From assembly GCA_041393275.1 (NCBI GenBank), contig JAWKKL010000002.1:13817-77816 (forward strand): a stretch of DNA of 64,000 nt, written 5' to 3'. A program made the position numbers and the translations under genes. Shown here piece after piece: positions 8,929 through 39,816 of this stretch. This stretch comes from Bacteroidales bacterium (GTDB lineage Bacteria > Bacteroidota > Bacteroidia > Bacteroidales > JAADJA01). Every line of letters starts with the position of its first letter. Positions within the stretch are counted from its first letter, which is position 1. The notes beneath the pieces were generated by a model. It worked only from the letters and a program-made list of their open reading frames with translations. It searched no databases and was not told the origin of the DNA.

Positions 8929-10368
8929 TTATCTTTTAATGAACTTATGTCGTCTTATTATATTTTTATCATCACTTATTTCAAGGATGTAAACTCCCGG
9001 AATTAACTTTGAAGTATTTACGCTTAGTGAAGTTTTATTCAAACCCTCACCAAATATTAATGAACTACCATGAAGCGAAAAGATTCGGTAAGCCTTAATT
9101 GGTGAATAAGATTTTATTTGGAAAGTATTTATTACCGGATTCGGGAAGATAGATAATCCAACTACTTTCTCTGAAATGATTGATGTGGATGTATATATTG
9201 GAACAACGAAATCAATGCAACCACCCGTCAAATCAAAATCTTTGGCTTCTCCCAATGTCCAGCCTCCTCCGTTAAAAACACAATTAATTGCATTCACCAC
9301 CGAACCTGCAGGAAATCCGTAAAAATCAACAGGCGTAAAAGTTATGGACCAGGTTGAATCGCCATTGTTTATCAATTTCGGCACCTGCCCGTTCATTGCG
9401 CTTCCATCGAAGCTAACCGTGTATTGCCAGGCTTCTCCAGCAATTGTAACCCCAGAGTGCATCATCACCGAATCGGGGTCAAACAATCCGCCATTGGGAC
9501 AGGAAAGTTTTGTATCAAGGGTTAGTGTTAACTCATCGTAAGCCGTTGCATAAGGAGGTTCAATAGTGATTGCCTGGGGAAGGATCAAAGCCGTATCTTC
9601 TACGGTAAATCCATCTTGTAGTGTTAAAAGGTTATCTTCATCATTTTCAACTTTTACATCCCAGATGCCTATATTTGCCTCTGCAGGTATGGATAGTATC
9701 GCCGAAATTAATGTATCATTAACGGCAAAAACAGAAGTGAATTCAATCACCTCTGCCCCATTCTCAATCCAGCCGCTTGTGGGCGAACTTTGAAAATGGG
9801 TATTCAGGCCGAAAACCTGGACACTCACATCATCACCTATATCGCCATGATCTGGAACAATGGAATGCAAAAATGGATCGCCCGGCGGTGAACCTGGATT
9901 TATGGGGATAAAAAAGTCGGCGCAATTTGTGCCACCTGATTGAAAATCCCTGGCATCTTGTGTCCAGTTAGTTCCGTTATTAAAAACGGCACATATCTGA
10001 GTTACTGTTTCATTTGGCATTATTCCATAAAAATCTGCCGGAATATAGGTGATGGCATAAACACCCTCCGAAACAAAATTCAGGACAGGCGACTGCCCAT
10101 TGGCGCCGGTTCCGTTAAAATCAACAACTTTTTGCCAAGCGTTACCATTGACGGTTATACCCGAATGAATGGCGACATAAGCTGCGCCCAACAAACTACC
10201 GTTTTCATAACAAGCCTCATCAAGAGTTAGGGTCAGGGTAATTTCGTCATAAACCGTTGCATTTACCGGTTGAATTTCAATGGCGGCAGGCATTTGGGCA
10301 ATCAATGCAGAGTTTCCGAGAACCAATAAAAGTGCAAATAAAATTGAAAAATGTATTCGTTTTTTCAT
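8929..10368 (-). CDS. Secreted T9SS-sorted protein with two copies of a ~115-aa module flanking an Ig/IPT-like domain; putative glycan-binding partner of the amylase
   Basis: Has a signal peptide (MKKRIHFSILFALLLVLGNSALIAQ). An internal duplication is visible (IEIQPVNATVYDEITLTL..HSGITVNGNAWQ..DFYG..VFNNGTNW..ARDF versus ITIEPPYATAYDELTLTL..HSGVTIAGEAWQ..DFYG..VFNGGGW..AKDF). The C-terminus has a T9SS type-A sorting pattern (FPNPV..GVYILEI). It lies 19 nt downstream of the amylase on the same strand. Confidence 0.7.
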   Translation of the reverse strand: MKKRIHFSILFALLLVLGNSALIAQMPAAIEIQPVNATVYDEITLTLTLDEACYENGSLLGAAYVAIHSGITVNGNAWQKVVDFNGTGANGQSPVLNFVSEGVYAITYIPADFYGIMPNETVTQICAVFNNGTNWTQDARDFQSGGTNCADFFIPINPGSPPGDPFLHSIVPDHGDIGDDVSVQVFGLNTHFQSSPTSGWIENGAEVIEFTSVFAVNDTLISAILSIPAEANIGIWDVKVENDEDNLLTLQDGFTVEDTALILPQAITIEPPYATAYDELTLTLDTKLSCPNGGLFDPDSVMMHSGVTIAGEAWQYTVSFDGSAMNGQVPKLINNGDSTWSITFTPVDFYGFPAGSVVNAINCVFNGGGWTLGEAKDFDLTGGCIDFVVPIYTSTSIISEKVVGLSIFPNPVINTFQIKSYSPIKAYRIFSLHGSSLIFGEGLNKTSLSVNTSKLIPGVYILEISDDKNIIRRHKFIKR

Positions 10369-10387: not shown

Positions 10388-11794
10388 TTATTTTGATAAG
10401 TAAACTCTATATTCCCAAGGCTGGAGGGAAACAGTTGTCTTTCCATCCCATGTTATTTCCTCTCCACTAAAATATTCTTGATATGAACCAAAATGATCCC
10501 CCCCTGAAAATGTTGTCTCAATTATATCATCCGATAAATTTACAATAGTAAAAATCTGATCAATCCCTTCCCCTCTTATAAAAGCGAAAACATCTTCATC
10601 GTTGGTTGTTTTTATCCTTATCATTGGCGAACCATATTCACCATTCCATAAGGCTTTTTGATTATTCTTTAATTGATTAAGTTTTGAATAAAATAAGATC
10701 AATGGAGAACTATCATCCCAATCAATTTGGTCTTTTTCAAAAAATTCGAGCCGTTTGTTCAACCCTACTTCCTGGCCACTGTAAATCAAAGGCATTCCCG
10801 GCAGTGTATAAGTCAACACCGTAAAGGCTTCCCCTCCCTCGCCCATTCGCTCCGTAACTGTTCCATTCCATGAATTTTCATCATGATTCGTAATAAAGGC
10901 CATCCGATACGCGTGCAAAGGGTAAGCTGTATCATTTTTATAAAAATACGCTTCGAGATCGTTGGCATTTTTTTCACCTTTAGCTATCTTATTAAATATA
11001 TGGTGTAGTTCCCAGGCGTACGACATATCAAATGATTTTTCGTGATGGGCAACTTCCTCTGCTTCGGCCAGCATAAAAACCGGTTTTATCTGATCAAGTT
11101 CGTACCGTGCTTTTTCCCAAAACTCCAGGGGGACCATTCCTGCTACATCACATCTATATCCATCAACATCGGCTTCTGTAACCCAAAACTTCAAGGCATC
11201 GATCTGGGCATCCCACAACGATTTTTCATCGTAATTCAAATCGGCTACATCCGACCAGTCAAATGGCGATACCATATTTCCCAGCGAATCTTTTGAATAC
11301 CATTCAGGATGGTTATAAATCCATTGATTATCCCAGGCGGTGTGATTGGCCACCCAATCAAGAATTACTTTAAAACCCATTTCATGCGCTTTTTTTACAA
11401 GGGATTTAAAATCTTCCAACGTTCCAAATTCAGGATTCACCGCCTTGTAATCTTTTACTGCATAATAACTTCCGAGGGATCCTTTGCGGTTTTTTTCTCC
11501 GATGGGGTAAATGGGCATCAGCCACAAAATTTTGACTCCCATATTTTGCAATCTGGGCAAATGTGATTCAAATGCCCTAAAGGTTCCTTCTTTGGTATAT
11601 TGCCTTATATTCACTTCATATATGTTGGCATTTTTGCTCCATTCGGGTGTGCTAAAGACATATGGTTGTTTTTCTGATACAATTTCTTCTGTTGAATTAG
11701 CCGGTTGATTGCATGAAAACATTATGGCCGCCAGAAACAAAATAATTCCCTGAAGTTTTAAATTTATCAGTAGTGTTGAATTCATCAGTGTCAT
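10388..11794 (-). CDS. GH13 alpha-amylase family lipoprotein
   Basis: Four GH13 conserved regions are present: DWVANH, GYRCDVAGMVP, MLAEAEE and FITNHDEN. The lipoprotein signal ends ..AAIMFSC. Confidence 0.9.
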   Translation of the reverse strand: MTLMNSTLLINLKLQGIILFLAAIMFSCNQPANSTEEIVSEKQPYVFSTPEWSKNANIYEVNIRQYTKEGTFRAFESHLPRLQNMGVKILWLMPIYPIGEKNRKGSLGSYYAVKDYKAVNPEFGTLEDFKSLVKKAHEMGFKVILDWVANHTAWDNQWIYNHPEWYSKDSLGNMVSPFDWSDVADLNYDEKSLWDAQIDALKFWVTEADVDGYRCDVAGMVPLEFWEKARYELDQIKPVFMLAEAEEVAHHEKSFDMSYAWELHHIFNKIAKGEKNANDLEAYFYKNDTAYPLHAYRMAFITNHDENSWNGTVTERMGEGGEAFTVLTYTLPGMPLIYSGQEVGLNKRLEFFEKDQIDWDDSSPLILFYSKLNQLKNNQKALWNGEYGSPMIRIKTTNDEDVFAFIRGEGIDQIFTIVNLSDDIIETTFSGGDHFGSYQEYFSGEEITWDGKTTVSLQPWEYRVYLSK

Positions 11795-14652: not shown

Positions 14653-17600
14653 TTAATCCGGTACCTGAGATCCTTTTCCAAGGTTAGGAAGTAAATAATC
14701 ATTTTTATCTTTATTGTCAACCTGTCCATCAAGGTTACCATCTGCGTTCAGATATCCATTGAAGGCCGCATTGGATTTCCAAAATAAAAAATCTGTTGAA
14801 TCGATCATCCCTTCCGAATAAAAATCACCGCTGATCATGCCCCAAACACCGGGTGCCAGTTCTTTGTGTCCGCTGATACCGCCATACACCCGGTCTACTC
14901 CATCAGTAAAATTATAATGATAAACACCTCCGATTTTTAACAAGGCCTCATTAGAAATCACAGCAAGATGATCCCTGTGAAAGATCACAACAAACAAATT
15001 TTGCAAAATGGTGGCATCAAATATTAGGAACGAGGGTTCCATCCAATCCGACAATATTACCGCTGTTTAGCAGAAACTCCTACCTGCCTGGACACAATTG
15101 TTCCCGCTCCAGCCAGTTCCACCGTGGCTGCATCCCTGATTTCAACCAGGATCCAATCGGTAATATTAATACCCTGAAGCGAAGGAACTGATTGCCCGCC
15201 ATAATAAAACCATGGAAATTTGTTATAGGGCTGGCTTAGTGGTAAAATCCCTGCGTCGCTTAAATCCGTGTTCATATCACCTTCCTCGTAGGGCCCTTCG
15301 AGGAGAACTGTAATATCGACAGGGATAAATGGAATAATTTCAATATCATCGATGTAAACGGATTCGTATCCATAATCGTATTCCGGTTTAAAAGCAATAA
15401 ATCCATTGGGATTCAGATTGCAACTTAGATCAATAACATATTCCTGATACTCTGGCGATAAATTCAAACATGTATCTACCATATAGGTGGATGCATCAAA
15501 TGGATCGGTTATTGTTCCAACAGACAATTTTTCGGCATTCCCATATGCATAAAACCGAATTCCATGGCATACATTGGAAACAGGCGGTGAGATCAACAAT
15601 TGAATGGCATTTAGATCGGACGCGTTTCTAATTTCAAGACATTGGGGCCAGCTATGCGTATTGTAATACACTATATTTATGTTGGCCAGGGCATCTGCCG
15701 ATTCAATAATTACACGCCAGCAGTCAGGTAATTCATAGATCGGGGAGCTATCAAAATTTTCAATGATAGATTCTTCAGTCGGTACGCAGAGCGTGCCGAA
15801 AAATAAAGGTCCGTTCCACCAGCTTACATCTCCTCCACCGCAAACACCCTGAATATACACATCATACTCTGTATCCGGTAATAGGCCACTGAGATGAAAA
15901 GGACTATCATTTGCAATAGCATTTGGTATACCAGTTGGAACAAATTCATGTTCTCCGTATTCAAGATTCCATTGGTTGGCATCTCCTGGATCTATCCATT
16001 GGAGAAACGCTGATGAATCGTTTGCAGATAATACCTGAAGATTTTCTGGCATCAAGCAGGTTGGGGCTATATCCACGGTAATATCATCAATATAAAGATT
16101 GAATATGTTTGGTTTGGCCTTCACATACCACCCGAAAAAATAAGTGCCGTCTGCAGGGGGTTCAACATAACAAACAGCGTGTTCGTAGGTAGGTTGAGTG
16201 ATCATACTGTCCTGAAAAATCGGAACATCTGGCATGGCCGAGGACATGGCATCCGTTCCGATATATACCTCCAGTTTTTCAATATATCCAGAATAAGTTG
16301 ACATATAGTAAAAGTCCACAACATAGTTTTCACCGGTATAAAGGTTTAGCGGAGCCGAAAAGAACCAGTCGTTGGTGGTGTCGTGCGAACTGTAGGATAT
16401 GCTGAAATGAGTGGATCCGGAATGCGGAAGATTGCCACTCGTTTCCCAATGATAATTGTCGTCATTTGTATTTTCAATGGAAATACATAATGGGATTTCA
16501 GGCGGCGTTACTCCTTCGAAACCTTCAAAATAAGGCACGTCCTGGATCATACAATGCGTTTGGAAACCTTTTGGACCTACCCAATAACTTTGGTCACCGG
16601 CACCACAATCAGCCTGCACGTAAAAATCGTAGGCAGTAGCTACTTCAAGGCCGATAAGTGTGGTCGGGTTCGAGTAAGCCACATGATTAGCTATTCCTAA
16701 CGGATCAAATCCCTCATAACCATATTCCACATTCCATGTAGTGGCTGTGCCATTTTCCATCCACCCGATTTCTGCCGTTGTCTGCATTAGCGATCCTTTG
16801 TATAGATCACCCGGCTTCAGGCAGGTCGGCATATCATCAATTAGGATGTTATCGATGATCAAACTTTCGTAATTGTTGTAAGCAATGGCTTTCAGGGCCA
16901 GAAATTCATCATTGCCCGTGTAATCCGCAAAATAAACCTCGAACTCCTGGTAGTCCTCGTCATATCCAGGTACATCCAGGAAAGTAAATTCACTGAATGA
17001 ATTTGTATCATTTGGATCCGACATGGTTCCGACCGACAGATCGCACCATCCCATAGCATACAGATCGAGGTATTTCATGGCCACTCCTCCGGGTAATTTC
17101 GGCGAAATAAAATACACTTCACCGTTGATTCCATTGGTCCACATCCGCAAACAATTCATACCGTTATATGCATTATCGTAAATATGTATACCTCCTCCCG
17201 ATCCGGATCGGTTTACCGACCAGCAAAACGGTATTTCCGGGTAGTAAACAGCCTCAAAATCCTCAAAAACGGACATTTCCTGTATGTTACATGCGGTATT
17301 GAATGACCATAACCGACCCGGGGTTTGTATAGTCGACAGGTCATTCCTTGAAACCACCTTCCAGTAATAGGTTTTTCCATATTTCATTGCTCCCGGATCA
17401 TAAAAGCCGGTCGTTCCGGCCGGGGCATTGTCCACAACCTTTTCGAGGTAGGGTAGGTCATAGCCGAAATAAAGATCATACCAGTCCGTATTTTCGCCGA
17501 AAGTCCAGGTCAGGTCGTCATTGATCTCCACATAAGTATCCACGCGTTCCGGAAACGGGTAATAAGCCTGTTGCGGGGCTTCGGGGGGTAAACTAAACTC

Positions 17601-18146
17601 AACTTTCAACCAGGGTGGCCGCTCTTCATTCCAGCCGTTTGCTCCCATTTTAAAATTGGGCAGATACCTGTATTCAACAAATGAAAATCCGAACCAGCCA
17701 TCAGCGAGGCTATTTTGCAAACCGGCCACACCTTCTGGCCAAAACTGAATTGTGGCCCATCCGGGCTCGTGAAAATCTCCTTCCCACCAAACATATTCAA
17801 TTCCATTCAGGCAATCAATGTACACAGAGGAAGGAGTACCAAGTAGGGGGTCATTTTCCAATGACTTATTCATCCATTTTGCAAAATTATTTTCAATAAT
17901 AAATAAATTCAATTCCACACTCTGAATGATTGCTTCAACAGGTATGGCTGAAATATTGAACCTGGCCCATGCCACCTCCGCATCCTCCGATTTTATATGT
18001 ATCAGACTGTTATCAGTAAAAATAGTCCCATTGGTCGCTCCTGTATTATAATTTCCTGTATCAGGAAAACAATAAACCAAGGCCTGGCTAAATACTATGG
18101 AAAAACTAAAAAGATTTAAAACAAATATTAAAATTTGGATTTTCAT
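14653..18146 (-). CDS. Giant secreted modular surface protein, paralog 1 (choice-of-anchor-J-like modules + FN3-like modules + non-T9SS C-terminal domain); two close frame breaks near the 3' end
   Basis: ORF 15057..18146 has a signal peptide (MKIQILIFVLNLFSFSIVFSQA). Through a short middle frame (FLLNSGNIVGLDGTLVPNI, about 15075-15020) it continues into ORF 14653..15054 (FDATILQNLFVVIFHRDHLAVISN...DGNLDGQVDNKD). The N-terminal ~290 aa are colinear with those of the 18335..23704 product. Confidence 0.75.
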
Positions 18147-18203
18147 GGCTTTTGGGGTTTTTTTCGATATTTATTTTAAGTTGTATTTGATTTTTACAAA
18201 CCT

Positions 18204-18211
18204 CAAATATA
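18204..18211 (-). promoter_or_regulatory. Candidate -7 promoter box (TATATTTG) for paralog 1
   Basis: Minus-strand TAnnTTTG match about 55 nt upstream of the ATG at 18146. The -33 element is weak. Confidence 0.35.
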
Positions 18212-18282
18212 CAAAATAAAAGCCTCAAAAGCAAGAATTTAGCTGTTCAATTATTGCCTTAAAAAGTTTAAAATATGTGAAA

Positions 18283-18314
18283 TAGAAAAGGGGTAAGCAT
18301 TCAGCCACCCCTTT
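18283..18314 (-). terminator. Candidate intrinsic terminator after paralog 2
   Basis: On the minus strand, stem AAAGGGGU / ACCCCUUU (18314-18307 pairs with 18294-18287) with a 12-nt loop is followed by UCUAUUU. Confidence 0.5.
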
Positions 18315-18334
18315 CATCCGATCATTTAATCTTA

Positions 18335-21300
18335 TTATTTGATGATAACCTTTTCGATATGATTGATCTTATCCGAATAAATGTAAAGATAATAAAGGCC
18401 TTTAGCAAAATTGCTCAGATCTATTATATCCGAAAAATCTTTGTGAAGAGAAATATTCCTCTTGACAAAAACCTCTTTCCCAAAATTATTTACCACTTTT
18501 ATGTTTACCTTTTCAACATCAACCGAATTTATTGCTAGTGTAAATTGCCCATCGTTAGGATTTGGCAAAATTGAAACGTTGAGTTCACCAGAATTTTCGT
18601 TTATTCCAATACCTAAATCCACAAGGATGGTTTCTTCGGCAAAATTTTCGCATAAATTGGCATCGGTATAGGTATAGGTTATTGTGTGTGTTCCTGGACC
18701 TGCAATGCCAGGATCAAACCATCCATTGTCCACCCCAGGGCCGGAATATTCGCCCCCGGCAGGGGCACCACCCGTTAATTCAAATGCCGGCCAATTTGGA
18801 TTAACTGCAGAAAATGGTTCAAGGGTTACGTTAGGTAAATACCGGATAATTAACAAGGGATTTGATGCAGGCCCTTCACAGCCATTATTTAATCCGGTAA
18901 CCACAAGATTCACATTGCCAGTAAATCCAATTGTCCAGTTAACTGTAACAGAAGTACCAGTACCAGAAACCGTACCGGCTGCAACTGGGTCTAATGCCCA
19001 ACTATATGTATTTGCTCCCGACGCACCGCTTGTACTGTAAGTGGATGTCGGATAATTTGCACATAAGTATGAGACTCCGAGAGGTGGACCAGGAGTGCCC
19101 GGCAGGTCATAAACAATCACTGTAACACTGTCGAACATAGAAATTAATCCATCGTTGACTTCAAGAAAATATTCGGTTGTTTCAGTAGGTGATACCGTTG
19201 GATTTTGCAGGGTTGAATTAAATCCCGGAGGCTCGGATGTCCAGGTGTAGTTGAAGTTTCCTGAACCGCCAACGGCTGTGGCATTCAACTGTGTACCTTC
19301 TCCATCACAAATTTCTTCGGGCGTTGCAGTCGCACTTATCACCAAACTATTATCCCATTCAATAAAAATATCATCAATATAAATATCCCATTGCCCTGGG
19401 ATGCTGTATCCATGCCAGCCAACAAAATATATTCCGCTTTCCTCAGGGCTGAACGATGTACTAGCTTCCTGATAAATATTATTATATGCAAACATTTCAT
19501 CCGTAAATATCGGATCGCTGGTCATTGAATCGGAAACCGCAGCCGAACCGAATTTAACTTCAAGGTTTTCATAATAATTGGCTGAATTTGTAGTGTAATG
19601 AAACACCACATTATAGGTTTGGCCACCTAACAAATCCAGGGGAGGTGAAAAGAACCAGTCATCCATCGGATTATTATAGGTATAACTTATAGCAAGGTGA
19701 TACATTCCACTGTTTGGTGTGTTCATGGAAGTCATCCATTGCAGGTTATCGCCATTCGTATTTTCAACTGCAATACAAGGCGGCACAAGTGGGACAAAGA
19801 CGTCTTCAAAACCTTCTTCATAGGGCAAAGCAGCAGGATAACATAAGGTTTTAAAAGTATATGGTCCAACCCAATAGCTCAGGTCACCGGCTCCACAATC
19901 AGCCTGAACATAATAATCGTAAAATGTGCCATCATTCAAGCTGGTAAGATTATAAGGATTAGTATTGGCTACTGCGGTAGGAACACCGGTTGGTGTAAAT
20001 CCCATTTCTCCGTATTCAATGTTCCATTGAGTGGCCGTACCATTTTCTGTCCAACCTAAAGTTGCTGTTGTTTGGGTCATTCCTCCTGCGGTCAGGTTTG
20101 AAGGCTTAGGGCATGTCGGTGGGTGGTCAATCGTGATATCATCTATATAAATATCCTGGTACATACCCGTAAATACCCCTTTAATTGCCATAAACTGATC
20201 GGGACCGGTATAGTTCGTAAAAAACACTTCATACTCTTGATAGAATGTAGATAAAGTAAGTGTTGTAATTTCATTATAGGTATTTGGATCATAAGGATCA
20301 GCCATTGTTCCAACCGAAATTTGAGGTGCATAACCCAAGGCAAAAAAGTTAAGGTATTTTCCGCTCGCCCCATCGGAAATAGGAGCAGATATAAAATACA
20401 AATCTGCATTTGCGTCATCGCTGTTGTTAATTGTCAAACAATTCGGCCCGCTATAAAAATTATAATTTACTGTTGCTACATCGGCGAATCCACTTACTGA
20501 TTCAGATATTTTCATCCAACAGTCGGGAAGGTCAGGAATTGACACTCCATCAAAATCTTCAAAAACAGGGACAGCAGCTGCCTCACACAAGGTAGTAAAG
20601 GTTTTTGGGGAAGACCACCAACTAACATCACCTCCGCCACAATCGGCCTGAAGATAATAGTCGTATGTTGTTCCAGGCTCAAGCCCTGTTAATTCGAATG
20701 GATTTGAATCGGCCGTTGCATTTGCACTCCCTGTCGGTACGAAACCAGTATACCCGTATTCAATATTCCATTGTGTTGCTGTCCCATTTTCCGTCCATGT
20801 TAACAAGGCTGAAGAACTACTCACCGTAATAACATCCAGCCAGGATGGTTTTAAACAGCTTGGGGCCACATCAATCAAAATTTCATCAACATACAAATTA
20901 TATTGATCAGGAACGCTATATCCATGCCATCCGACATAATAAACGCCATCTGTTGTGGGTGTAAAATACCCCACACCTTCGTACCATGTAAAGGCATAAT
21001 TTATGTTTTCATCCGAAAAAATCGGCCCATTTACCATCGCTGAGGAATTTGGAAAACTACCCCACAAAACCTCCATCTTTTCGACATAGCTTGAACTATT
21101 GCTGGTATAATAAAATTGAACAATGTAGGTTTCTCCTCCTGTTAAATCGAGTGGGGCAGAAAAAAACCAGTCATTCATGGCCAGGCTTCCATTGTAGTTT
21201 ACCCGAATGCTGTTTGATCCGGCATAAGCTGCATCATTTGTTGCGTACCACGAATTGAAATCCCCATTTGTATTTTCCACAATAATGCATGGGGGCACAT

Positions 21301-23704
21301 CTGGAATGATGGCTGATTCAAAACCTTCTGTATACGGAACCGAAGTGGCTTCACATGCGGTTTTAAAACTAACCGGCCCAACCCAATAACTTACATCTCC
21401 TTCGCCACAATCGGCCTGTACATAGTAATCATAAGCCGTGGCGTCATCAAGTCCGGTTAAGGTATATGGATTAGCATCAGCGATTGCATTAGGCACACCA
21501 CCTGGTAAAAAATCTTTTAAACCATATTCAATATTCCACTGGGTAGCCGATCCATTCTCTGTCCATTCAAGAACTGCAGATGTGGTTGTAAAATTATAAG
21601 CCAACGCATCGGTAGGTTTAGGACATGTCGGGGGGTGATCAATGATAATATTATCAATAAATACACCCTGGTAGCTAAATTGATATACCGCTTTGAATGC
21701 TATATACTGGTCAGTTCCTGAATACGTGCTAAAATCAATCTCAAACTCCTGAAAATCATTTGTTAAATCAACGGTTGTAAACTCTGTAAATGTTGCAGCA
21801 ACCAGGGGATCCGACATTGTACCAACAATTACCTGTGGTGAATATCCCAGTGAAAAGAAATTTACCCACAGACTATTTACCGGTTCGTTCAATTGAGGGG
21901 AAATAAACAGCGTTGTAGCAGTTCCATCATCACTATTAGTCAAATAAACAGAATTGGGTTCGGTATAAAAATTATAATTAACAGTTATCACATCTGCCCA
22001 GATGGATGTGGACTCAACCAGGCCTGACCAGCATAAAGGTAATTCCGGAGGATCCATGAGATCAAAATCTTCAATTACAGGCACATTTGCCAATTCACAT
22101 TCGGTATTAAATTCGTAAGGTCCTGACCAATAGCTCACATCCCCTGCACCACAATCGGCCTGAACATAAAATTCGTATACAGTGGAAGGCATCAATCCAG
22201 TTATTTCATGAGGATTTTGGCTTGTCGAAAATGTAGGAACACCAGTAGGAGTAAATCCCTTTGGACCATATTCAACATTCCACATAGTGGCACTGCCGTT
22301 TTCAACCCAACCTATAAATGCCGTTGTCGAAGAATATTCGCCTGCATAAAGGTCGGTTGGTTTCGGGCATGTCGGGGCATAATCAATAAGAATTTCATCA
22401 ATAAAAATAGTCTCATAAAAATTCCCAACCGGATGCTTAAATGCAATAAAGTTATCTGTTCCGGTATAATTGGTAAAATACACCTGGAATTCCTGATAAT
22501 CCTGATAATTTCCTGAAAGGTTAACGATGCTGATTTCATTATAAGTTGCCGGGTCATTAGGATCCGAAATTGTTCCAACAGATAATTGGGGGGAATAACC
22601 CCAGGCAAAGAAATTAACGAATTTACTGCTAACACCCCCATCAATGAGAGGAGAAATAAACAGTAATTCAGCCGTTAAATCATCAGCATTTTCCATCGAA
22701 ACGCAATAGGAATCGCCTATTCCATTGTAAGGTTGGGTTTGCACATACGCCCATTGCGAAAAAGTATTTTCAACCTTGTACCAGCATTCCGGTAAAACAG
22801 GGGGTAACGTGTTTTCAAAATCTTCGAAAACAGCCACTTCATAAGCATCGCATGCGGTCCTGAAAGACCAGACAGGCCCAGGGGTTTCCAGTAATTTTGA
22901 ACTGTTCCTCGAAACTACCTGCCAGAAATAATCGGTATTAAAAAGTAAGGTTCCCGGATCCCAGCTACCGTTTACCCCGGATATCGCATTGTCAACAACT
23001 TTTGTCATCGGGGGAAAATCGGTTCCAAAAAACAAATCATAGTTTTCAGTATTTGCTCCAAATGTCCATTCTACATCTGCCTCCACATCAACGGCAACAG
23101 ACTCATCCTGAGGTATTGGAGCGTATGCAGGGAGAGGGGCACCGGCTACCAGGTACGAAACAGCCAAATAGGGTTGGTTTGTTTCATTCCAACCATCACA
23201 GGTAATAGCGTAGCCTGTAAATGTCTCCCATTCCCAAATACTGATAGCAAACCATCCATCATCCATCTGCGCCTGTGCAGTAATAACTGCATCTGTACCT
23301 AAATCAGCAATAAACCAACCAGGCTCTGGGAAATTGGCCCCCTGCCACTCGGCATACATCGTGCCGTCAGTGCAGTCGGTAAATACATCTGCTGCGGTTC
23401 CTGAAAGCGGATCATATTCCATTGACATTACCCGCCAATAGGCATTGTTGTCAACGGCCACATAAAGGTTAAGTTCCAGCGTTTGGATAGTTGCCCCAGC
23501 TGGAATAGTTGAAATATCAAAGCGGGCCCAACCAGCCTCAATTCCTGCTGACTCAGTCTTAATCAAACTCGTTTGTGTAAAGCTTGTTCCATTTGTTGAT
23601 CCGGTATTGTAATCACCTGATCCTGGAAAACAGTTAATCGTCCCCTGTCCGAAGAGGAAAATTGTCAAAAAAAGGAATGACAATAGTAAAAATTGTTTTT
23701 TCAT
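18335..23704 (-). CDS. Giant secreted modular surface protein, paralog 2 (1789 aa; alternating choice-of-anchor-J-like and FN3-like modules, Ig-like domains, T9SS C-terminal sorting domain)
   Basis: Intact ORF with a signal peptide. It carries four FN3-like modules (C.KP..L...W.ENG.AT.WN.EYG..GF.P.G...YVQADCG.GD.SYW.GP..F.T.C), three A-type modules (FEDF..P.CW...ID.I.ID..PTC) and two B-type modules (PY.EGFE..PPCI.VENTNGD..NDWFFS.PLDL.GG.TY). The C-terminus reads LPNPNDGQFTL...GLYYLYI. Confidence 0.85.
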   Translation of the reverse strand: MKKQFLLLSFLFLTIFLFGQGTINCFPGSGDYNTGSTNGTSFTQTSLIKTESAGIEAGWARFDISTIPAGATIQTLELNLYVAVDNNAYWRVMSMEYDPLSGTAADVFTDCTDGTMYAEWQGANFPEPGWFIADLGTDAVITAQAQMDDGWFAISIWEWETFTGYAITCDGWNETNQPYLAVSYLVAGAPLPAYAPIPQDESVAVDVEADVEWTFGANTENYDLFFGTDFPPMTKVVDNAISGVNGSWDPGTLLFNTDYFWQVVSRNSSKLLETPGPVWSFRTACDAYEVAVFEDFENTLPPVLPECWYKVENTFSQWAYVQTQPYNGIGDSYCVSMENADDLTAELLFISPLIDGGVSSKFVNFFAWGYSPQLSVGTISDPNDPATYNEISIVNLSGNYQDYQEFQVYFTNYTGTDNFIAFKHPVGNFYETIFIDEILIDYAPTCPKPTDLYAGEYSSTTAFIGWVENGSATMWNVEYGPKGFTPTGVPTFSTSQNPHEITGLMPSTVYEFYVQADCGAGDVSYWSGPYEFNTECELANVPVIEDFDLMDPPELPLCWSGLVESTSIWADVITVNYNFYTEPNSVYLTNSDDGTATTLFISPQLNEPVNSLWVNFFSLGYSPQVIVGTMSDPLVAATFTEFTTVDLTNDFQEFEIDFSTYSGTDQYIAFKAVYQFSYQGVFIDNIIIDHPPTCPKPTDALAYNFTTTSAVLEWTENGSATQWNIEYGLKDFLPGGVPNAIADANPYTLTGLDDATAYDYYVQADCGEGDVSYWVGPVSFKTACEATSVPYTEGFESAIIPDVPPCIIVENTNGDFNSWYATNDAAYAGSNSIRVNYNGSLAMNDWFFSAPLDLTGGETYIVQFYYTSNSSSYVEKMEVLWGSFPNSSAMVNGPIFSDENINYAFTWYEGVGYFTPTTDGVYYVGWHGYSVPDQYNLYVDEILIDVAPSCLKPSWLDVITVSSSSALLTWTENGTATQWNIEYGYTGFVPTGSANATADSNPFELTGLEPGTTYDYYLQADCGGGDVSWWSSPKTFTTLCEAAAVPVFEDFDGVSIPDLPDCWMKISESVSGFADVATVNYNFYSGPNCLTINNSDDANADLYFISAPISDGASGKYLNFFALGYAPQISVGTMADPYDPNTYNEITTLTLSTFYQEYEVFFTNYTGPDQFMAIKGVFTGMYQDIYIDDITIDHPPTCPKPSNLTAGGMTQTTATLGWTENGTATQWNIEYGEMGFTPTGVPTAVANTNPYNLTSLNDGTFYDYYVQADCGAGDLSYWVGPYTFKTLCYPAALPYEEGFEDVFVPLVPPCIAVENTNGDNLQWMTSMNTPNSGMYHLAISYTYNNPMDDWFFSPPLDLLGGQTYNVVFHYTTNSANYYENLEVKFGSAAVSDSMTSDPIFTDEMFAYNNIYQEASTSFSPEESGIYFVGWHGYSIPGQWDIYIDDIFIEWDNSLVISATATPEEICDGEGTQLNATAVGGSGNFNYTWTSEPPGFNSTLQNPTVSPTETTEYFLEVNDGLISMFDSVTVIVYDLPGTPGPPLGVSYLCANYPTSTYSTSGASGANTYSWALDPVAAGTVSGTGTSVTVNWTIGFTGNVNLVVTGLNNGCEGPASNPLLIIRYLPNVTLEPFSAVNPNWPAFELTGGAPAGGEYSGPGVDNGWFDPGIAGPGTHTITYTYTDANLCENFAEETILVDLGIGINENSGELNVSILPNPNDGQFTLAINSVDVEKVNIKVVNNFGKEVFVKRNISLHKDFSDIIDLSNFAKGLYYLYIYSDKINHIEKVIIK

Positions 23705-25908: not shown

Positions 25909-26684
25909 CTATCCAAAAATCCCTTTTACCGCCCCGCCATCAACACTTATTGTCTGTCCGGTAATATACCCTGAATGTTCAGATAATAACCAGGCTGCCA
26001 GCATCCCGAATGTTGATGTATCGCCCATATGGCCAACCCTAATTTGATTTTCATATTTCTTTTTTGCCTCTTCGAAGGTTATATTTTCGACTTGGCTGCG
26101 TTTCGTGAACAGACGCTGGGCAGCCGGTGTATCGTGGAAACCGGGGGCAAGGATATTTAATGTGATCCCTTCGCGTGCGATCTCTTGTGAAAGTGTTTTT
26201 ACAAAACCCACCACAGCCAGCCGCAATGAATTGCTCAACACCAGGTTTTCAACAGGCTGTTTAACCGATTCGCTTTCGATATAGACAAACCGGCCGTAGC
26301 GTTGCGCCCGGAAAACGGGTAATAATTTTTTTGTAAAATTCACTTTCCATCGTACAATGGTTTGATAGGCATTGTCCCAGTCTTCCATTTGTGTTTCGAG
26401 GAATGATTTGGCCGGTGGCCCGCCGGCATTGATCAATACGCCACTTAAAAACCTGCTGTTTATTTTTTCCAGGATTTCATTCTGAACGGAATCAGATGTA
26501 ATATCCCCTGAAATAATTTCGACCTGATCCGGAAAGTCTTTGAAAGTTGGTGGAGTTTATCTATATCCCTGGCGACTGCAATAATTTTAGCCCCATCATT
26601 CAATAATCCGAGGGCAACGCCTTTTCCTAAACCGCTGGTTGCGCCGCATACCACAAATAATTTTCCTTTTATCTTTAAATCCAT
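25909..26684 (-). CDS. SDR-family oxidoreductase (single frame break as sequenced)
   Basis: The N-terminus VVCGATSGLGKG (TGxxxGxG) lies in ORF 26460..26684. At about 26530 (CCGG where CCCGG would restore the frame) the protein continues as TFPDQVEIISGDITSD...LINAGGPPAK into ORF 25909..26436. Confidence 0.8.
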
Positions 26685-26724
26685 AGTTTATTAATCTTTA
26701 ATTTTTACTCAAAACTTTTCATTC

Positions 26725-26757
26725 ATCGGCTAAGCGGTTTAAATCCGCTAAGCCGAT
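26725..26757. other. Strong intergenic hairpin (13-bp stem, one A-A mismatch, 7-nt loop)
   Basis: ATCGGCTAAGCGG (26725-26737), TTTAAAT, CCGCTAAGCCGAT (26745-26757), between the radical SAM and SDR genes. No adjacent U-run on either strand. Confidence 0.6.
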
Positions 26758-26767
26758 TTATCCCCTA

Positions 26768-27658
26768 TCAAAGCCCCCTTTGCCATTCTTCCCGCAGAAT
26801 GCCAGAGCGGGGATTTGCAATGGCATAATCAAGCTGGCTTTGCAATTTTTGATTATCCCGCCCCAAAATTCCTTTTAACGAAACATAATTCGATGCATGA
26901 TCGCTTCTGAAAATCGTATTGGATAAGGATGTTTCCGATAAGAAAAACAGAAGCTCCTGCATCAGTTCAATGTTGTTCATTTCTTCGAATTCTCCTAAAA
27001 ACTTTTGTTTGTAGTGATCGACCCCAAAAGGAAAACTCAGTACAAGGGTGGATAAAAAGTCAGGCTGGATTACAGAAACTATCTTCGCAGAATTCAACGC
27101 GTGTTGTTTTGAATATTTTTTCCCGCCGAGACCATTTAAAATCATCACGGAAGTTTTAATTCCTGCATGCTGCGCTTTCAATAGGTTTCGCTCAATTGAA
27201 TTAACCGTCTCCCCCTTATTGACCAGGGCCAATAATTCTTCGTCTCCGGTTTCAATTCCCACGTAGATAAGTTTTAATCCGGCATTTCTTAATTCCAAAA
27301 GTTCTTTTTCCGACTTGTTTTCCAGGTCGCTGCAACTTGCATAAGTCGATACCCGTGTTAATTTTGGAAAACTATGCTGAAGCTGGTTTAATATGTTCAG
27401 CAATCGTTTTGTGCTCAATACCATGGCGTTTCCATCGGCCAGGAAAACCTTGCGGACATCAGCATAGTAATTCGATGCCACTTCAATTTCTTCTATTACC
27501 GCGTCTTCACTTTTTACTTTAAATGTTTTGGAGGTGTACATTTCGCAAAAGGCGCAACGGTTCCACGAACATCCTGTCGTTACCTGAAAAATGAAGGAGT
27601 AGGCCTCGCTGGGAGGACGGAACAGGGGTTCGTCATACTTAACCGGAGAAAAAATCAT
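26768..27658 (-). CDS. Radical SAM domain protein, function unknown
   Basis: 296 aa with the CxxxCxxC cluster motif CSWNRCAFC near the N-terminus, followed by GIETGDEE-type barrel motifs. Confidence 0.8.
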   Translation of the reverse strand: MIFSPVKYDEPLFRPPSEAYSFIFQVTTGCSWNRCAFCEMYTSKTFKVKSEDAVIEEIEVASNYYADVRKVFLADGNAMVLSTKRLLNILNQLQHSFPKLTRVSTYASCSDLENKSEKELLELRNAGLKLIYVGIETGDEELLALVNKGETVNSIERNLLKAQHAGIKTSVMILNGLGGKKYSKQHALNSAKIVSVIQPDFLSTLVLSFPFGVDHYKQKFLGEFEEMNNIELMQELLFFLSETSLSNTIFRSDHASNYVSLKGILGRDNQKLQSQLDYAIANPRSGILREEWQRGL

Positions 27659-27748: not shown

Positions 27749-29977
27749 ATGAAAAGTACACAACATCTTCTCCCCTCTTTTTTCCTGATTATTTTTTTAT
27801 CACTTTTAACTTTCAGTGGTTTTTGTCAACTACAAAATGTCAACAACTTGCCGGATATTTCATTCAATGGAAAATTTATTATCACTCCGCAGAATAGCGG
27901 TTTCAGAGCCATTTCGGAAAACGGGCTGTACAATGTTAAATATGAAATAGCTGAAGTTTCGGACGAAAACAGGAAACTGACCCATGTTCAACTTTACAAA
28001 AATGAACAGCGTTTGTACTCGCTTCCTTCTGTTCCGGGGGCTGATGTTTATGTTTCGAATAGCGGATGTATGGCGGTACTGGATATGAACCTCCATTTTA
28101 TGCAAAAACTGACCATCCACTTTTTTGATAATAAGGGAGAATCGCTGTTTTCGGAAGCTTTCGAGTATGCTTCATTGTTTGGTTTCAGTCCTTCGGGGAA
28201 ACGGTTTGTGGTTGGGACCGATAAAAACCTGCACGTGATTTTGATTGAAGAAAACAAAATTATTAAGCTTAAACCGGCCAGCGAGTTTGCGTTTTCGGAG
28301 GACGAAACTTATTTGGCAACGGCCAGGGAATCGGACCTTACCATTTATAAAAACGGGAAAGAAATTAATTCAATTAATACGGGTTTGTTTTACCCGAGAG
28401 GATTAGCTGTGGATGCCGGAAATAATAAGGTTTGGATAATTGGAAAACAAAAAATAAAAGCTTATCAAATTGAAAACGGCAGCTTATTCTATGAAGATGA
28501 ACTTTCAGAGGATTTCTCTTTCAGGGATTTGATAATTAAGAATGATATGATTTATTCCGGGATTCATTATAAATACAACGGCATTTCAAAAGGAATTATC
28601 AGAACATATAATAGCTCAGGCCAGATCATCACCGAAGAAGTGAAAGCAACGAAATCATTCCAGCAATTTGAGAAAAAACCGGCTTCCAGTAAATCATCAA
28701 AATACAACGCCATTCCCTGGCCTTTTGTCCCGTTCGATGAGGTGCATAAAGTATGGAACCATTACGAACAACATATGGGAGATGGTTCGGGCGACTGGGC
28801 CTATTTGCACCAGGGCCTCGATCTTGAAGTGCCGATTAATGAACCGACGTATGCCGTTGAGGAAGGATGGGTAAAGTTGGTCCTTACCATAGGCGGTGCC
28901 TCCTATTGGCGGCTTGCCATCAGTCCTGAGCAAACATCAGGCTATTCCGATGGCTGGTTGTATGCCCACCTTGTCGAAAGCAGCATTATGGTTGATGTGG
29001 GGGATTATGTTGAGGTGCATGATTACCTGGGCGATATCATTTACTGGTCCGACGACTGGGGGCATATTCATTTTGTCAACATTCACGACCAGGGAAATAT
29101 CTGGTATTATGATGATGATGAATGGGGCATAAATTTTAATCCTCTGCTGGCGTTAGATCCAATAACTGATGAAGTTGCGCCTGTCATCGAAAACTTTTCA
29201 TCATCATCAAAATTTGGTATCTGCATAAATGAATCATCAACTTTTTTAAATCCCGGGAATGTGTATGGAGATATTGATATCATTGCAAAGATCAGCGACT
29301 TTCATGGCGATTCTGAATGGGAACAACCGGCCTTTAAAACCTATTATTGGCTTACCAAACTTCCGGCAAATGATACGGTTTTTCCGAAAACCCTGGGGCA
29401 AATATTAAATCATTCGTACGAAATGTACAACAGCACGTTTTTTACGTATTATGCCCCGGTACTTTATTACAAAGACTACCTCCACCCTTCTCCGCCCTGG
29501 ATGAACACCAGCCGCGACTATTACCAGATACTTACAAACAATAATGGAGACTCGATTATAGAGATTTCAGAAAGTGCCCTCGCATTTGAAACGACAAATT
29601 ACACCGATGGCGACTACCGTCTTTTTGTTGAAGCCTGGGACGAATTTGGTAACATGGATGTGGACAGCATGACGGTGACGTTTAATAATGGAATTTATAC
29701 AAACACTCAGTCAATTGTTGTAAGCAAAAAGGCTGGATTGTATCCAAATCCATGCCATGATGTTGTGGTAATTGAGGCATCATTTGTTGGGGATCAAAAG
29801 ATATCACTATCAATTTATAACCTGGAAATGCAAGAATTTTTCAATAAAGAAATAAACCCGGACAGCTTTAAAAATGGGAATTATACAATTAATACGAATT
29901 TCCTGAAATCCGGCATATACTTAATTGAGCTTTCTAACGATGAAAATTTTTACAGCAATAAATTGGTTAAACTGTAA
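27749..29977 (+). CDS. T9SS-sorted secreted protein with an M23-like metallopeptidase core
   Basis: Has a signal peptide. HQGLD (HxxxD) and a later WGHIHF (HxH) match M23 zinc ligands. The C-terminus is LYPNPCHDVVVIE...GIYLIEL. Confidence 0.65.
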   Translation: MKSTQHLLPSFFLIIFLSLLTFSGFCQLQNVNNLPDISFNGKFIITPQNSGFRAISENGLYNVKYEIAEVSDENRKLTHVQLYKNEQRLYSLPSVPGADVYVSNSGCMAVLDMNLHFMQKLTIHFFDNKGESLFSEAFEYASLFGFSPSGKRFVVGTDKNLHVILIEENKIIKLKPASEFAFSEDETYLATARESDLTIYKNGKEINSINTGLFYPRGLAVDAGNNKVWIIGKQKIKAYQIENGSLFYEDELSEDFSFRDLIIKNDMIYSGIHYKYNGISKGIIRTYNSSGQIITEEVKATKSFQQFEKKPASSKSSKYNAIPWPFVPFDEVHKVWNHYEQHMGDGSGDWAYLHQGLDLEVPINEPTYAVEEGWVKLVLTIGGASYWRLAISPEQTSGYSDGWLYAHLVESSIMVDVGDYVEVHDYLGDIIYWSDDWGHIHFVNIHDQGNIWYYDDDEWGINFNPLLALDPITDEVAPVIENFSSSSKFGICINESSTFLNPGNVYGDIDIIAKISDFHGDSEWEQPAFKTYYWLTKLPANDTVFPKTLGQILNHSYEMYNSTFFTYYAPVLYYKDYLHPSPPWMNTSRDYYQILTNNNGDSIIEISESALAFETTNYTDGDYRLFVEAWDEFGNMDVDSMTVTFNNGIYTNTQSIVVSKKAGLYPNPCHDVVVIEASFVGDQKISLSIYNLEMQEFFNKEINPDSFKNGNYTINTNFLKSGIYLIELSNDENFYSNKLVKL

Positions 29978-38962: not shown

Positions 38963-39816
38963 AGATACTGGAAACTTACCGGGATGCCCTGCAAAGTATT
39001 CCCGGCTTTATCCCTACGGATAAAAAAGTCCAGGCAATCAATACTTTGCTTGAGGTCAATTTCGATATCCTTGATGTTGGGAGTTTCGTTTCTGAAAAAT
39101 TTGTTCCCCAGTTTAAGGATATGGATGCGGTACTGAATCAAATCCAGAAAGGGAACTCAATAACTGAAATATTTGTTTTGACAGCTACACCAGAAGGTGC
39201 AAATAAAGCAGCACAACATAAGATCATTGATATTATAGGTTATCCCTTTTCTACCTCTCCCACTTTTCTAAACAAGAATATAAACAGAAATTTTGATGAA
39301 GCATGGGTTGATATTGTAAAGATTCAGGATATTTGTCAAAAATACAATAAAGACCTAATGCTTTACCTCGCTATGGCTTTTGGCAATCCGTATGGCGATC
39401 CGGTGGAAATTAAGGATATTTTTTCCTGGGTTCAAAAATTTTCTTCAATTGGTATCACTTATATCAGCCTGTCTGATATTATTGGTGTTGCCTCTCCCCA
39501 ATTTATTGCCGATGCATATCAGACTTTTACTACAAATTTCCCTGATATTGAATTTGGGCTTCATTTACATACCAAACCAAATGACTGGGAACAAAAAATC
39601 GAAGCCGCCTACACGAACGGATGCACTATTTTCGACGGGGTGATCTCTGGCCTGGGTGGATGCCCGATGACGGGTTACGAAATGCTTGGGAATTTGCCAA
39701 CCGCAAAACTGGTTGATTTTTTCCTGAAAAAAGGGATCCCTTTGCAACCTGGAAAGGACAAATTTGAAAAAGCCCTCACAATGTCAAACGATTATATTCA
39801 GCCTGGTAAGCAATAA
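38935..39816 (+). CDS. HMG-CoA-lyase-like (HMGL/DRE-TIM) protein
   Basis: From the ATG at 38935: MVQKNHRKVKILETYRDALQS.., LHLHTKPN, and DGVISGLGGCP. The upstream part of tracked ORF 38518.. overlaps the membrane gene in another frame. Confidence 0.75.
   Translation: MVQKNHRKVKILETYRDALQSIPGFIPTDKKVQAINTLLEVNFDILDVGSFVSEKFVPQFKDMDAVLNQIQKGNSITEIFVLTATPEGANKAAQHKIIDIIGYPFSTSPTFLNKNINRNFDEAWVDIVKIQDICQKYNKDLMLYLAMAFGNPYGDPVEIKDIFSWVQKFSSIGITYISLSDIIGVASPQFIADAYQTFTTNFPDIEFGLHLHTKPNDWEQKIEAAYTNGCTIFDGVISGLGGCPMTGYEMLGNLPTAKLVDFFLKKGIPLQPGKDKFEKALTMSNDYIQPGKQ

Follow-up and report, generated by a model that had tools for sequence, protein, structure and literature searches.

Two adjacent modular, putatively surface-displayed proteins of an uncultured Bacteroidales bacterium share one plan and differ in their C-terminal modules

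The window analysed here is a stretch of 64,000 nucleotides from the MAG of an uncultured Bacteroidales bacterium (contig JAWKKL010000002.1). Two neighbouring genes on its minus strand, P1 and P2, encode large modular proteins (Table 1). Both ORFs are present as described in a first-pass annotation, and their products are about 41-42% identical (BLASTP: 41% over 839 columns, E = 0.0). The N-terminal region that they were said to have in common is indeed colinear (46% identity), and the peptides quoted from it and from the modules were all found in the two ORFs. The length of ~1160 aa given for the second protein does not apply to the gene as assembled, in which the single ORF stops at 15057 and the rest is gained only by two +1 frameshift repairs. 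The homolog P0005 is identical to P2. Module HMMs give the order N-A-F-A-F-B-F-A-F-B-Ig/PKD-CTD for P1 and N-A-F-B-F-A-Cx for P2, in exact agreement with the module orders first proposed. Judged by sequence, P1 and P2 are colinear paralogs that appear to have arisen by an ancient duplication, and the difference between their C-terminal modules seems to be the sole unusual feature of the pair. Horizontal acquisition as the source of the divergence of P2 was rejected, because its GC3 (0.415) lies inside the range of the neighbouring genes (0.33-0.44).

Table 1. Coordinates of the genes, predicted domains and other features of the P1/P2 locus, numbered within the window.
Feature	Position	Strand	Basis or remark
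Gene P1	18335..23704	-	ORF, 1789 aa, intact
P1 putative signal peptide MKKQFLLLSFLFLTIFLFG, then Gln20	23648..23704	-	read from translation
P1 N1 domain, ~170-aa β-sandwich cap, CBM96/DNRLRE-like fold	23135..23647	-	module HMM, AF2, Foldseek
P1 N2 domain, ~95 aa, motif YFWQV...WSF.T	22850..23134	-	module HMM
P1 A1, choice-of-anchor J subtype A	22370..22849	-	choice_anch_J 34.3 bits, cut-off 30; module HMM
P1 F1, FN3, three invariant Cys	22097..22369	-	fn3 match, module HMM
P1 A2+F2, 248-aa unit	21353..22096	-	A2 21626-22096, F2 21353-21625
P1 B1, choice-of-anchor J subtype B (VENTN...NDWFFS)	20858..21352	-	choice_anch_J 36.1 bits
P1 F3, FN3	20585..20857	-	best Pfam fn3 stretch, residues 952-1032
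P1 A3	20114..20584	-	50% identical to A1 and A2; module HMM
P1 F4, FN3	19841..20113	-	fn3 E = 3.2e-8, 34.1 bits, scanned alone
P1 B2	19349..19840	-	best choice_anch_J stretch, residues 1296-1448
P1 Ig/PKD-like stalk, ~260 aa	18569..19348	-	PKD_6 at residues 1537-1614
P1 T9SS type A C-terminal sorting domain (CTD)	18338..18568	-	PF18962, TIGR04183
P1-P2 intergenic region	18147..18334	-	terminator-like hairpin + U-tract, TATATTTG box
Gene P2 as assembled	15057..18146	-	ORF, 1029 aa; NCBI MEZ5081987.1
P2 N1	17574-18086	-	module HMM
P2 N2	17289-17573	-	module HMM
P2 A1	16824-17288	-	module HMM
P2 F1	16551-16823	-	module HMM
P2 B1	16059-16550	-	module HMM
P2 F2	15786-16058	-	module HMM
P2 A2	15327-15785	-	module HMM; start of Cx comes next
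P2 Cx, ~223 aa, ends QVPD	14656..15326	-	β-sandwich + two dockerin-like Ca-loop motifs; three frames
P2 frameshift zone	15017..15083	-	two +1 frameshifts, ~15077-15080 and 15020-15037

The repeated part of both proteins was first thought to contain three module types. Only two families are found: A and B both match the NCBIfam model choice_anch_J (NF038128) and are, on the strength of these matches, two subtypes of one family, choice-of-anchor J, and the F modules are predicted FN3 domains. For choice_anch_J, P1 scores 95 bits over four stretches and P2 70.3 bits over two (cut-off 30); scanned alone, A1 and B1 pass (Table 1), A2 of P1 (26.8 bits) and A2 of P2 (25.8 bits) fall just under the cut-off, and A3 gives no NCBIfam match. 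The A modules are mutually 29-50% identical, and A aligns to B with 15-25% identity. Pfam fn3 (PF00041, gathering score 25) is matched at 98 bits over four stretches in P1 and at 41.8 bits in P2. The claim that conserved cysteines mark the module boundaries holds, with invariant positions at F columns 1, 73 and 91 (14/14 modules), A column 22 (13/13) and B column 23 (6/6); each unit of 248-256 aa contains four invariant cysteines.

In Pfam, the A and B modules match no family at E<=1, the cleaved-adhesin model included. The fold of module A, searched with Foldseek as a combined A2+Cx model of which the matches covered the A part only, is closest to the cleaved-adhesin domains K1/K2/K3 of Kgp (E = 1.4e-7 to 1.8e-6, TM 0.61-0.70 on the target), followed by a MAM domain and then by CBM4/16/29/61. 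The choice-of-anchor J, FN3 and MAM annotations that had been anticipated are thereby recovered, the last at the level of the fold. The gingipain/HagA cleaved adhesins of P. gingivalis (structures 4itc, 3km5 and 3m1h) likewise contain repeated jelly rolls in T9SS-secreted Bacteroidales surface proteins, but their identity to module A is only 15-17%, and P1 and P2 differ from them in having no protease domain and in modules that are FN3-separated and Cys-bracketed.

The N-terminal cap is formed by N1 and N2, neither of which has a Pfam match even at E<=1. N2 gives no NCBIfam or PDB sequence match, and a profile of N1 and N2 together finds nothing among PDB sequences at E<=5. The N1 family counts 673 representatives at E<=1e-3, and N2-like stretches are present across many phyla. 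N1 often lies ~65 aa upstream of the C-terminal module Cx. The AF2 model of N1 (pLDDT 95.2) has as its best folds a chondroitin-sulfate-binding CBM (8wab) and an alginate-binding CBM96 (7vbo), both at TM 0.62-0.64 and 12-15% identity; Foldseek also matches TGF-β/BMP prodomains. The latter CBM, TM6-N4, was reported to be ~30% identical to DNRLRE-domain members (PMC9971899). DNRLRE_dom is matched weakly in 21 of 35 N1 family members (best E = 3e-7), and the N1 domains of the window reach 15.3-16.2 bits against DNRLRE (NF033679), under its cut-off of 34. Taken together with the model, N1 would be a family without a Pfam name that adopts a β-sandwich of CBM96/DNRLRE-like fold and that, in contrast to CBM96/DNRLRE proteins, is not joined to a lyase or hydrolase.

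By translation, the hydrophobic N-terminus of P1 reads MKKQFLLLSFLFLTIFLFG followed by Q, and a Gln is conserved at this position in P2 and in the homologs P0001, P0002, P0007, P0008 and P0015. At the other end of P1, residues 1713-1789 match PF18962 (Por_Secre_tail; 40.7 bits, cut-off 27), and the C-terminus matches TIGR04183 (30.5 bits, cut-off 23). The description of these products as surface proteins is consistent with this putative signal peptide and the T9SS type A CTD of P1; two more CTD-bearing ORFs lie within the window. In the stalk, PKD_6 (cut-off 25) scores 24.4 bits in the whole protein and 28.1 bits when the stretch is scanned alone, and an NCBIfam scan of the Ig region gives no match. 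A phmmer search with whole P1 returned FN3, CTD and Ig-type chains only. Between the two genes, a hairpin with a U-tract (~18287-18314; -16.4 kcal/mol, z = -3.5) was spotted by eye and then folded; the equivalent hairpin in the relative L159 folds at -18.2 kcal/mol. The TATATTTG box at 18204-18211 is presumably a candidate Bacteroides-type -7 element (TAnnTTTG). Scans for sigma-70 promoters (33 vs 29.9 in shuffles) and for terminators (9 vs 9.0 in shuffles) were not above expectation.

P2, even with its frameshifts repaired, matches no T9SS C-terminal domain in Pfam or NCBIfam at E<=1. Its last module, Cx, consists of a ~150-aa β-sandwich followed by a dockerin-like part, and its very end is a conserved Q[VIM]P[EDA]. 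In the alignment, the final ~60 aa hold two DxDxDG/DxNxDG...D loops ~30 residues apart, and in the model the dockerin-like part has a pLDDT below 50. A Cx profile finds six weak matches in the PDB, all of them dockerins and all sub-threshold (best E = 0.037); Pfam Dockerin_1 is matched in 1 of 12 Cx members (weak, E = 0.01), with no other Pfam match at E<=1 and none in NCBIfam. Cx weakly resembles dockerins (PF00404; e.g. 2vn5_B) in its putative paired Ca-loop motifs, at sub-threshold scores throughout, and differs from them by the β-sandwich in front and by its terminal motif. The family comprises at least 920 clusters at E<=1e-5, always C-terminal and with varied passengers that include Cohesin, Beta_helix, BACON_2, GEVED and PKD. 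It is widespread in uncultured Bacteroidales, where hundreds of otherwise unrelated proteins end in Cx; the homolog P0007 carries an intact copy, and the Cx protein P0154 also bears a cohesin domain. In the literature on dockerin, cohesin and T9SS in Bacteroidetes, we found nothing on a Cx-like module. Cx may serve as an alternative anchoring or sorting module. Tentatively, and with more doubt than confidence, we propose that it is a new C-terminal display module of uncultured Bacteroidales, offering a second anchoring or sorting route without a T9SS CTD, possibly of cohesin-dockerin type. If this is true, P1 and P2 would be a natural case of one passenger type on two anchors, and N1 could be a functional partner of Cx.

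Positions 1-81 and 101-223 of the Cx HMM lie in different frames of P2, and the last 133 aa (14653..15054) are reachable only via the two +1 frameshifts. The frameshift zone was placed by three-frame translation against the Cx consensus ...ARQAAFLLNNGSIVGLDG...NLFVV..HRNHLG. A repair with a single frameshift was rejected: it yields ...VSAKQ-AVILSDWMEPSF..., which mismatches the family consensus FLLNxGxIVGLDG, whereas the three-frame path matches. As the frame is interrupted twice, P2 may have lost its function here. P2 could then be a decaying pseudogene, P1 alone having stayed functional after the duplication and real frameshifts having cost P2 its C-terminal module. The two +1 frameshifts within ~60 nt of Cx and the truncated 1029-aa product in the database entry are consistent with this, as are the lower identity of P2 (49%) than of P1 (83%) to the respective orthologs in L159, a relative with the same tandem pair, and the complete absence of P2 from the syntenic locus L001. 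However, outside the 60-nt zone the frame stays open, for 3.1 kb on the upstream and 400 nt on the downstream side; P2 retains every boundary cysteine and every nearly invariant Cx residue, and the P2-type gene of L159 is intact. Moreover, a neighbouring short-chain dehydrogenase gene is also frameshifted, which suggests sporadic consensus errors in the MAG. Decay of P2 is, on balance, a serious possibility that falls somewhat short of being probable.

No catalytic domain was found in P1 or P2 in the Pfam and NCBIfam scans, and both are probably secreted, non-catalytic, multivalent binding proteins, that is, putative adhesins or lectins. The domain identities, folds, architectures and differences between relatives are established by the analysis, and from there we infer secretion, surface attachment, ligand binding and the role of Cx. 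In the plan common to both, a Sec signal peptide followed by Gln would precede a distal β-sandwich cap, N1, and the small N2, and behind this cap choice-of-anchor J jelly rolls (A, B) alternating with FN3 spacers would form a rod. P1 would be carried across the outer membrane by the T9SS, after which its CTD would be removed and the protein fixed to the cell surface with N1 facing outward; these steps of export, CTD cleavage and surface attachment follow established T9SS biology. P2 would present the same type of passenger with Cx instead of the Ig/PKD stalk and T9SS CTD.

A more specific role would be glycan capture in a polysaccharide-degrading lifestyle, with the jelly rolls acting as CBMs that hold polymer at the surface and not as cell or host adhesins. 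The nearest folds of N1, CBMs for chondroitin sulfate and alginate, point in this direction, as do the matches of module A to CBM4, CBM16, CBM29 and CBM61 and the sugar-metabolism genes at the flanks (GalK, aldose 1-epimerase, and an α-amylase adjoining another T9SS cargo), with synteny kept in L001 and L002. Yet module A finds its best matches in gingipain adhesin domains rather than in CBMs, the pair has no glycoside hydrolase, lyase or SusC/D-like gene as a fusion partner or neighbour, and the flanking genes are housekeeping genes that lie on the other strand or form separate units. Against the broader binding role, too, stands that N1 and module A resemble binding modules only in their fold (9-17% identity), and that such jelly rolls occur in non-binding contexts as well, as in the TGF-β/BMP prodomains matched by N1. 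We consider glycan capture possible but less likely than not, and retain the broader reading of multivalent binding proteins.

Since P1 bears a T9SS sorting domain, it fits the class described as putative adhesins that combine FN3 with choice-of-anchor J. The likeness, by architecture only, extends to the putative signal peptide, the type A T9SS CTD and the lack of a catalytic domain, and NCBI names both window proteins accordingly. Both differ from the class by the N1+N2 cap, which lies outside any library model, and P2 differs further in ending in Cx without a T9SS CTD.

The modules had at first been taken to be shuffled. The comparison argues otherwise: in NJ trees, modules cluster by position across orthologs, and P2 is colinear with P1 except for a single gap of 248 aa. 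The same gap, exactly this long, recurs in global alignments, where the aligner puts it at P1 488-735, with the A2+F2 unit present in P1, L001 and P0015 and absent from P0016, L002, L080 and P2. Module number does differ among relatives, as the proposed comparison of copy number was meant to reveal; in addition to the A+F unit, the P2 ortholog of L159 has the form N1-N2-A-Cx, with one module against five, and P0008 contains a recent internal duplicate, in which two A modules are 74% identical. The pattern is best described as colinear descent with gain and loss of whole units, without exchange. As the position-wise clustering extends across species that are ~60% identical, the arrangement would have been stable for long. 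Choice-of-anchor J + FN3 units would be gained or lost in register over evolutionary time, a process that appears inactive in this genome.

It had also been suggested that DNA-level similarity between modules would allow their recombinational expansion or contraction. Such similarity exists in the segments at 16581 and 19871, which share 51 nt at ~86% identity and encode the invariant YxxYVQADCGxGDxSYW motif, but it is weak, no exact run being longer than 14 nt. Overall, the codon-threaded DNA identity among modules is 35-66%, Tandem Repeats Finder detects no array at module scale on the locus, and exact repeats in the 9 kb reach 17 nt at most, barely above chance (triplet shuffles: mean 12.7, maximum 15). 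RecA-type recombination requires roughly 20-30 bp of perfect identity. With DNA identity of at most 66% and a longest exact repeat of this size, ongoing recombination is implausible here, and the repeats of this genome appear too diverged to sustain it. Neither exact-sequence queries of the contig collection with P1 and P2 nor P1-specific peptide patterns run against metagenomes turned up strains of the same species. That the pair is an active contingency locus, with present-day homologous recombination within and between both genes and strain-level variation, is very improbable, since the whole-unit differences between orthologs, the four-module difference between P2 orthologs of close relatives and the duplicated A modules of P0008, which favour it, stand against the diverged module DNA, the short exact repeats, the missing tandem array and the long-stable arrangement.

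The P1/P2 pair is an unexceptional variant, of modest interest, within a protein kind that is already recognised, and P1 adds one member to the large class of T9SS cargo with FN3 as well as choice-of-anchor J domains, which is a small gain. It does offer a clean example of copy-number change in which a 248-aa unit comes or goes in register and the order of the modules is left unaltered, correcting the impression of shuffling. Two unnamed families, N1 and Cx, recur often among the surface proteins of environmental Bacteroidales. Because P1 and P2 differ mainly in their C-terminal module, the pair would be a convenient handle on anchor choice and a handy system in which to test it.

P1 and P2, the two adjoining minus-strand genes, are paralogs built on a common plan (41% identity over 839 columns in BLASTP, E = 0.0; 42% over 1157 columns in a global alignment). 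Their architectures (table) were derived from motif and cysteine positions, module alignments and searches of the six-frame translations with module HMMs; these HMMs detected no further copy of any P1 or P2 module elsewhere in the 64 kb. All peptides listed in the first-pass annotation were found in this region, and the module orders it proposed for both proteins match exactly by motifs, alignments and HMMs. Its division into three module types holds in part: F is an FN3 unit (Pfam, 98 bits in P1 and 41.8 in P2), but A and B are not separate kinds, as both match NCBIfam choice_anch_J (NF038128) and are two subtypes of one family, choice-of-anchor J. Of the domains it had suggested, FN3 and choice-of-anchor J are assigned by Pfam/NCBIfam, and MAM appears among the PDB fold matches of A. 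Amino-acid identity is 46% between the N regions of P1 and P2, 42-66% between F, 29-50% between A and 42-45% between B modules, versus 15-25% between A and B. The boundary cysteines are invariant in 33 modules of six family members (F columns 1, 73 and 91; A column 22; B column 23), and the repeat period is 744 nt for A+F and 768 nt for B+F.

Features of the window, by position
Feature	Position	Strand	Length	Content
P1 ORF	18335..23704	minus	1789 aa	signal peptide, N1 (20-190), N2 (191-285), A, F, A, F, B, F, A, F, B, Ig/PKD-like (1453-1712), type IX secretion system (T9SS) type A C-terminal sorting domain, CTD (1713-1789)
P2 ORF	15057..18146	minus	1029 aa	signal peptide, N1, N2, A, F, B, F, A, start of Cx
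133-aa ORF	14653..15054		133 aa	downstream of P2, other frame
Cx module	14656-15326		about 223 aa	C-terminal module of P2
+1 shifts	about 15077-15080, 15020-15037			P2 tail
Gln codons	23645-23647, 18084-18086			P1, P2
Dehydrogenase gene	26380-26780	minus		short-chain, split
Overlapping ORFs	37601-38962, 38518-39816	plus		overlap about 445 nt
T9SS-tailed ORF	8929-10368	minus		Por_Secre_tail 34.7 bits; DUF4961
T9SS-tailed ORF	27749-29977	plus		Por_Secre_tail 35 bits
α-amylase gene	10388-11794			adjoins 8929-10368

The modules had been described as shuffled. In NJ trees, however, they cluster by position across proteins: the first B of P1 groups with the first B of the homologs P0015 and P0016 and with the B of P2, the last B of P1 with the last B of P0016, and the F after the first B forms a single clade that includes the P2 copy. 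Module order was therefore inherited, and variation among relatives is a matter of whole units gained or lost. Radical SAM, GalK, PPK2 and the giant gene share synteny at three loci. The architecture of P1 recurs at locus L001, which lacks a second gene, and its module order in P0015; the syntenic L002 begins N1-N2-A-F-B, L080 reads N1-N2-A-F-B-F-A to the contig end, and P0016 runs N1-N2-A-F-B-F-A-F-B-Ig-CTD. Copy number, when compared across relatives, differs by whole units: exactly 248 P1 residues, one A+F unit, are missing from both P0016 and P2 in the global alignment, and the P2-type protein P0007 of locus L159 contains a single module in place of the five in P2. P0008, of another lineage, has undergone a recent internal duplication, with two A modules 74% identical.

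DNA-level similarity between modules, as previously noted, is present but weak. The pair at 16581/19871 covers 51 nt that are about 86% identical, matches exactly over 14 nt at most, and codes for the invariant YVQADCG motif. In codon-threaded alignments, modules are 35-66% identical at the DNA level, exact repeats within the 9 kb reach 17 nt at most (triplet shuffles: mean 12.7, maximum 15), and Tandem Repeats Finder detected no module-scale tandem array. The proposed recombinational expansion and contraction thus holds for the past of the locus, not as a mechanism at work today.

The tandem pair is also present in a relative (L159 1-3948; ENA ERZ24842145, Bacteroidales_JAADJA01_3). There, the tail of a P1 ortholog (last 559 aa 83% identical to P1) is followed after 197 nt by an intact P2-type gene, N1-N2-A-Cx (P0007, 668 aa), 49% identical to P2. 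The tandem arrangement thus predates these species; of its two members, the one carrying Cx diverges much more quickly and varies in length.

The second protein, earlier given as about 1160 aa, is not one ORF: the P2 frame stops at 15057, and MEZ5081987.1 in the database corresponds to this truncated product of 1029 aa. In the interrupted stretch, the aligned Cx family has the consensus ...ARQAAFLLNNGSIVGLDG...NLFVV..HRNHLG..., which P2 regains only across three frames; the Cx HMM consequently matches P2 in two pieces, each in a different frame. The neighbouring short-chain dehydrogenase gene is likewise frameshifted, with its N-terminal part MDLKIKGKLFVVCGATSGLGKG... in one frame and the Pfam-matched part (profile positions 78-234) in another, which suggests sporadic indel errors in the MAG, or a second pseudogene. 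For P2, consensus errors therefore have to be considered alongside pseudogenisation. The overlapping plus-strand ORFs could be another frameshifted gene or include a spurious ORF. At L001 10058-15434 (ENA ERZ25039514 contig_88919), the syntenic P1 ortholog falls into about a dozen called genes through frameshifts, and its neighbours are likewise broken; this contig appears to come from an assembly rich in errors, which makes the genes called on it unusable as evidence for fragmentation.

The tails of the paralogs differ. P1 terminates, after a PKD_6 match, in a sorting domain of T9SS type A that exceeds both curated cut-offs, and P2 in Cx, for which Pfam and NCBIfam give no match. In the Cx alignment, a conserved core is accompanied by a pair of dockerin-like loops, GDxDxDGxIxxxD and DFNLDGQVDNKD; a conserved Q[VIM]P[EDA] forms the extreme C-terminus. 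Against the PDB, the profile retrieved dockerins only, as weak matches (best E = 0.037), and the dockerin-like tail is a lead on function rather than a demonstration. The family comprises at least 920 clusters at E<=1e-5, almost all "hypothetical protein" of uncultured Bacteroidales, many of about 297 aa, with several copies per MAG; Cx takes the C-terminal position throughout. Other members carry Cohesin, Beta_helix, BACON_2, GEVED or PKD passengers ahead of Cx; in P0154 (among the family members P0154-P0273) a cohesin domain takes this place. In the N1-containing representatives, too, Cx is always C-terminal, and an N1 copy frequently precedes it by about 65 aa. Because it is a C-terminal module shared by varied passengers, we infer that Cx may act in P2 as an alternative anchoring or sorting module; that it marks an undescribed display route seems rather doubtful.

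N1, the first part of the N-terminal cap, matches no Pfam family. A four-sequence profile retrieved 673 representatives at E<=1e-3 from 1.84 billion sequences, and N1 sits N-terminally, internally or C-terminally in many large proteins; it is a mobile domain, not confined to the P1/P2 family. The very large P0006, P0019, P0021 and P0024 contain two or three internal N1 copies; they also have stretches resembling cohesins and dockerins, and a tail of T9SS type. NCBIfam DNRLRE_dom is weakly matched by 21 of 35 N1 members, every one below cut-off. N1 is modelled with very high confidence (pLDDT 95.2); the folds closest to it belong to a chondroitin-sulfate-binding CBM (8wab) and to the founder of CBM96, which binds alginate (7vbo), at TM 0.62-0.64, followed by TGF-β/BMP prodomains and gingipain adhesin domains. 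The CBM96 paper ties 7VBO to the DNRLRE domain (PMC9971899). N2 (about 95 aa, YYWxV...W.F.T) has no match in the domain libraries or PDB, and N2-like stretches occur in many phyla. In P1, P2 and homologs, Gln directly follows the hydrophobic signal sequence (...FGQ, ...FSQ, ...YGQ, ...HGQ). Substrates of Bacteroidetes signal peptidase I reportedly tend to begin with Gln (pyroglutamate), a tendency that these ends match.

One NCBI MAG, labelled Bacteroidales bacterium, is the source of both proteins, each of them a singleton. The locus is flanked by housekeeping genes (peptidase C26, aldose 1-epimerase, PPK2, galactokinase, a dehydrogenase, a radical SAM protein), and the GC3 of P1 and P2 lies inside the local range. 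Two more ORFs of the window end in a T9SS type A domain. With a terminator-like hairpin and U-tract after the P1 stop codon, here and in a relative, and a TATATTTG box upstream of P2, the two genes are probably separate transcription units.

In the AlphaFold model of the last A module of P2 plus Cx, the A part is confident (pLDDT mostly above 90), and among PDB folds this part most resembles the "cleaved adhesin" domains K1, K2 and K3 of Lys-gingipain (TM 0.61-0.70 on target), then a MAM domain and CBM4/16/29/61. These neighbours point to putative adhesin-type protein or glycan binding for A and B, and those of modelled N1 to polysaccharides as putative ligands. P1 and P2 would be secreted, non-catalytic, multivalent binding proteins, in which jelly rolls of adhesin/MAM/CBM-like type alternate with FN3 spacers to form a rod topped by a CBM-like cap, and P1 would be displayed via the T9SS; family knowledge is what suggests secretion, attachment and binding. 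This body plan fits the FN3 and choice-of-anchor J class of T9SS cargo, whose members have been described as putative adhesins (PMC11969387). The pair is thus an ordinary representative of a known kind, for which domain-level annotation already exists; modestly new are the N1 cap and the Cx module, both unnamed, the latter taking the place of the T9SS domain in one of the paralogs, and the different rates at which the P1 and P2 copies evolve.
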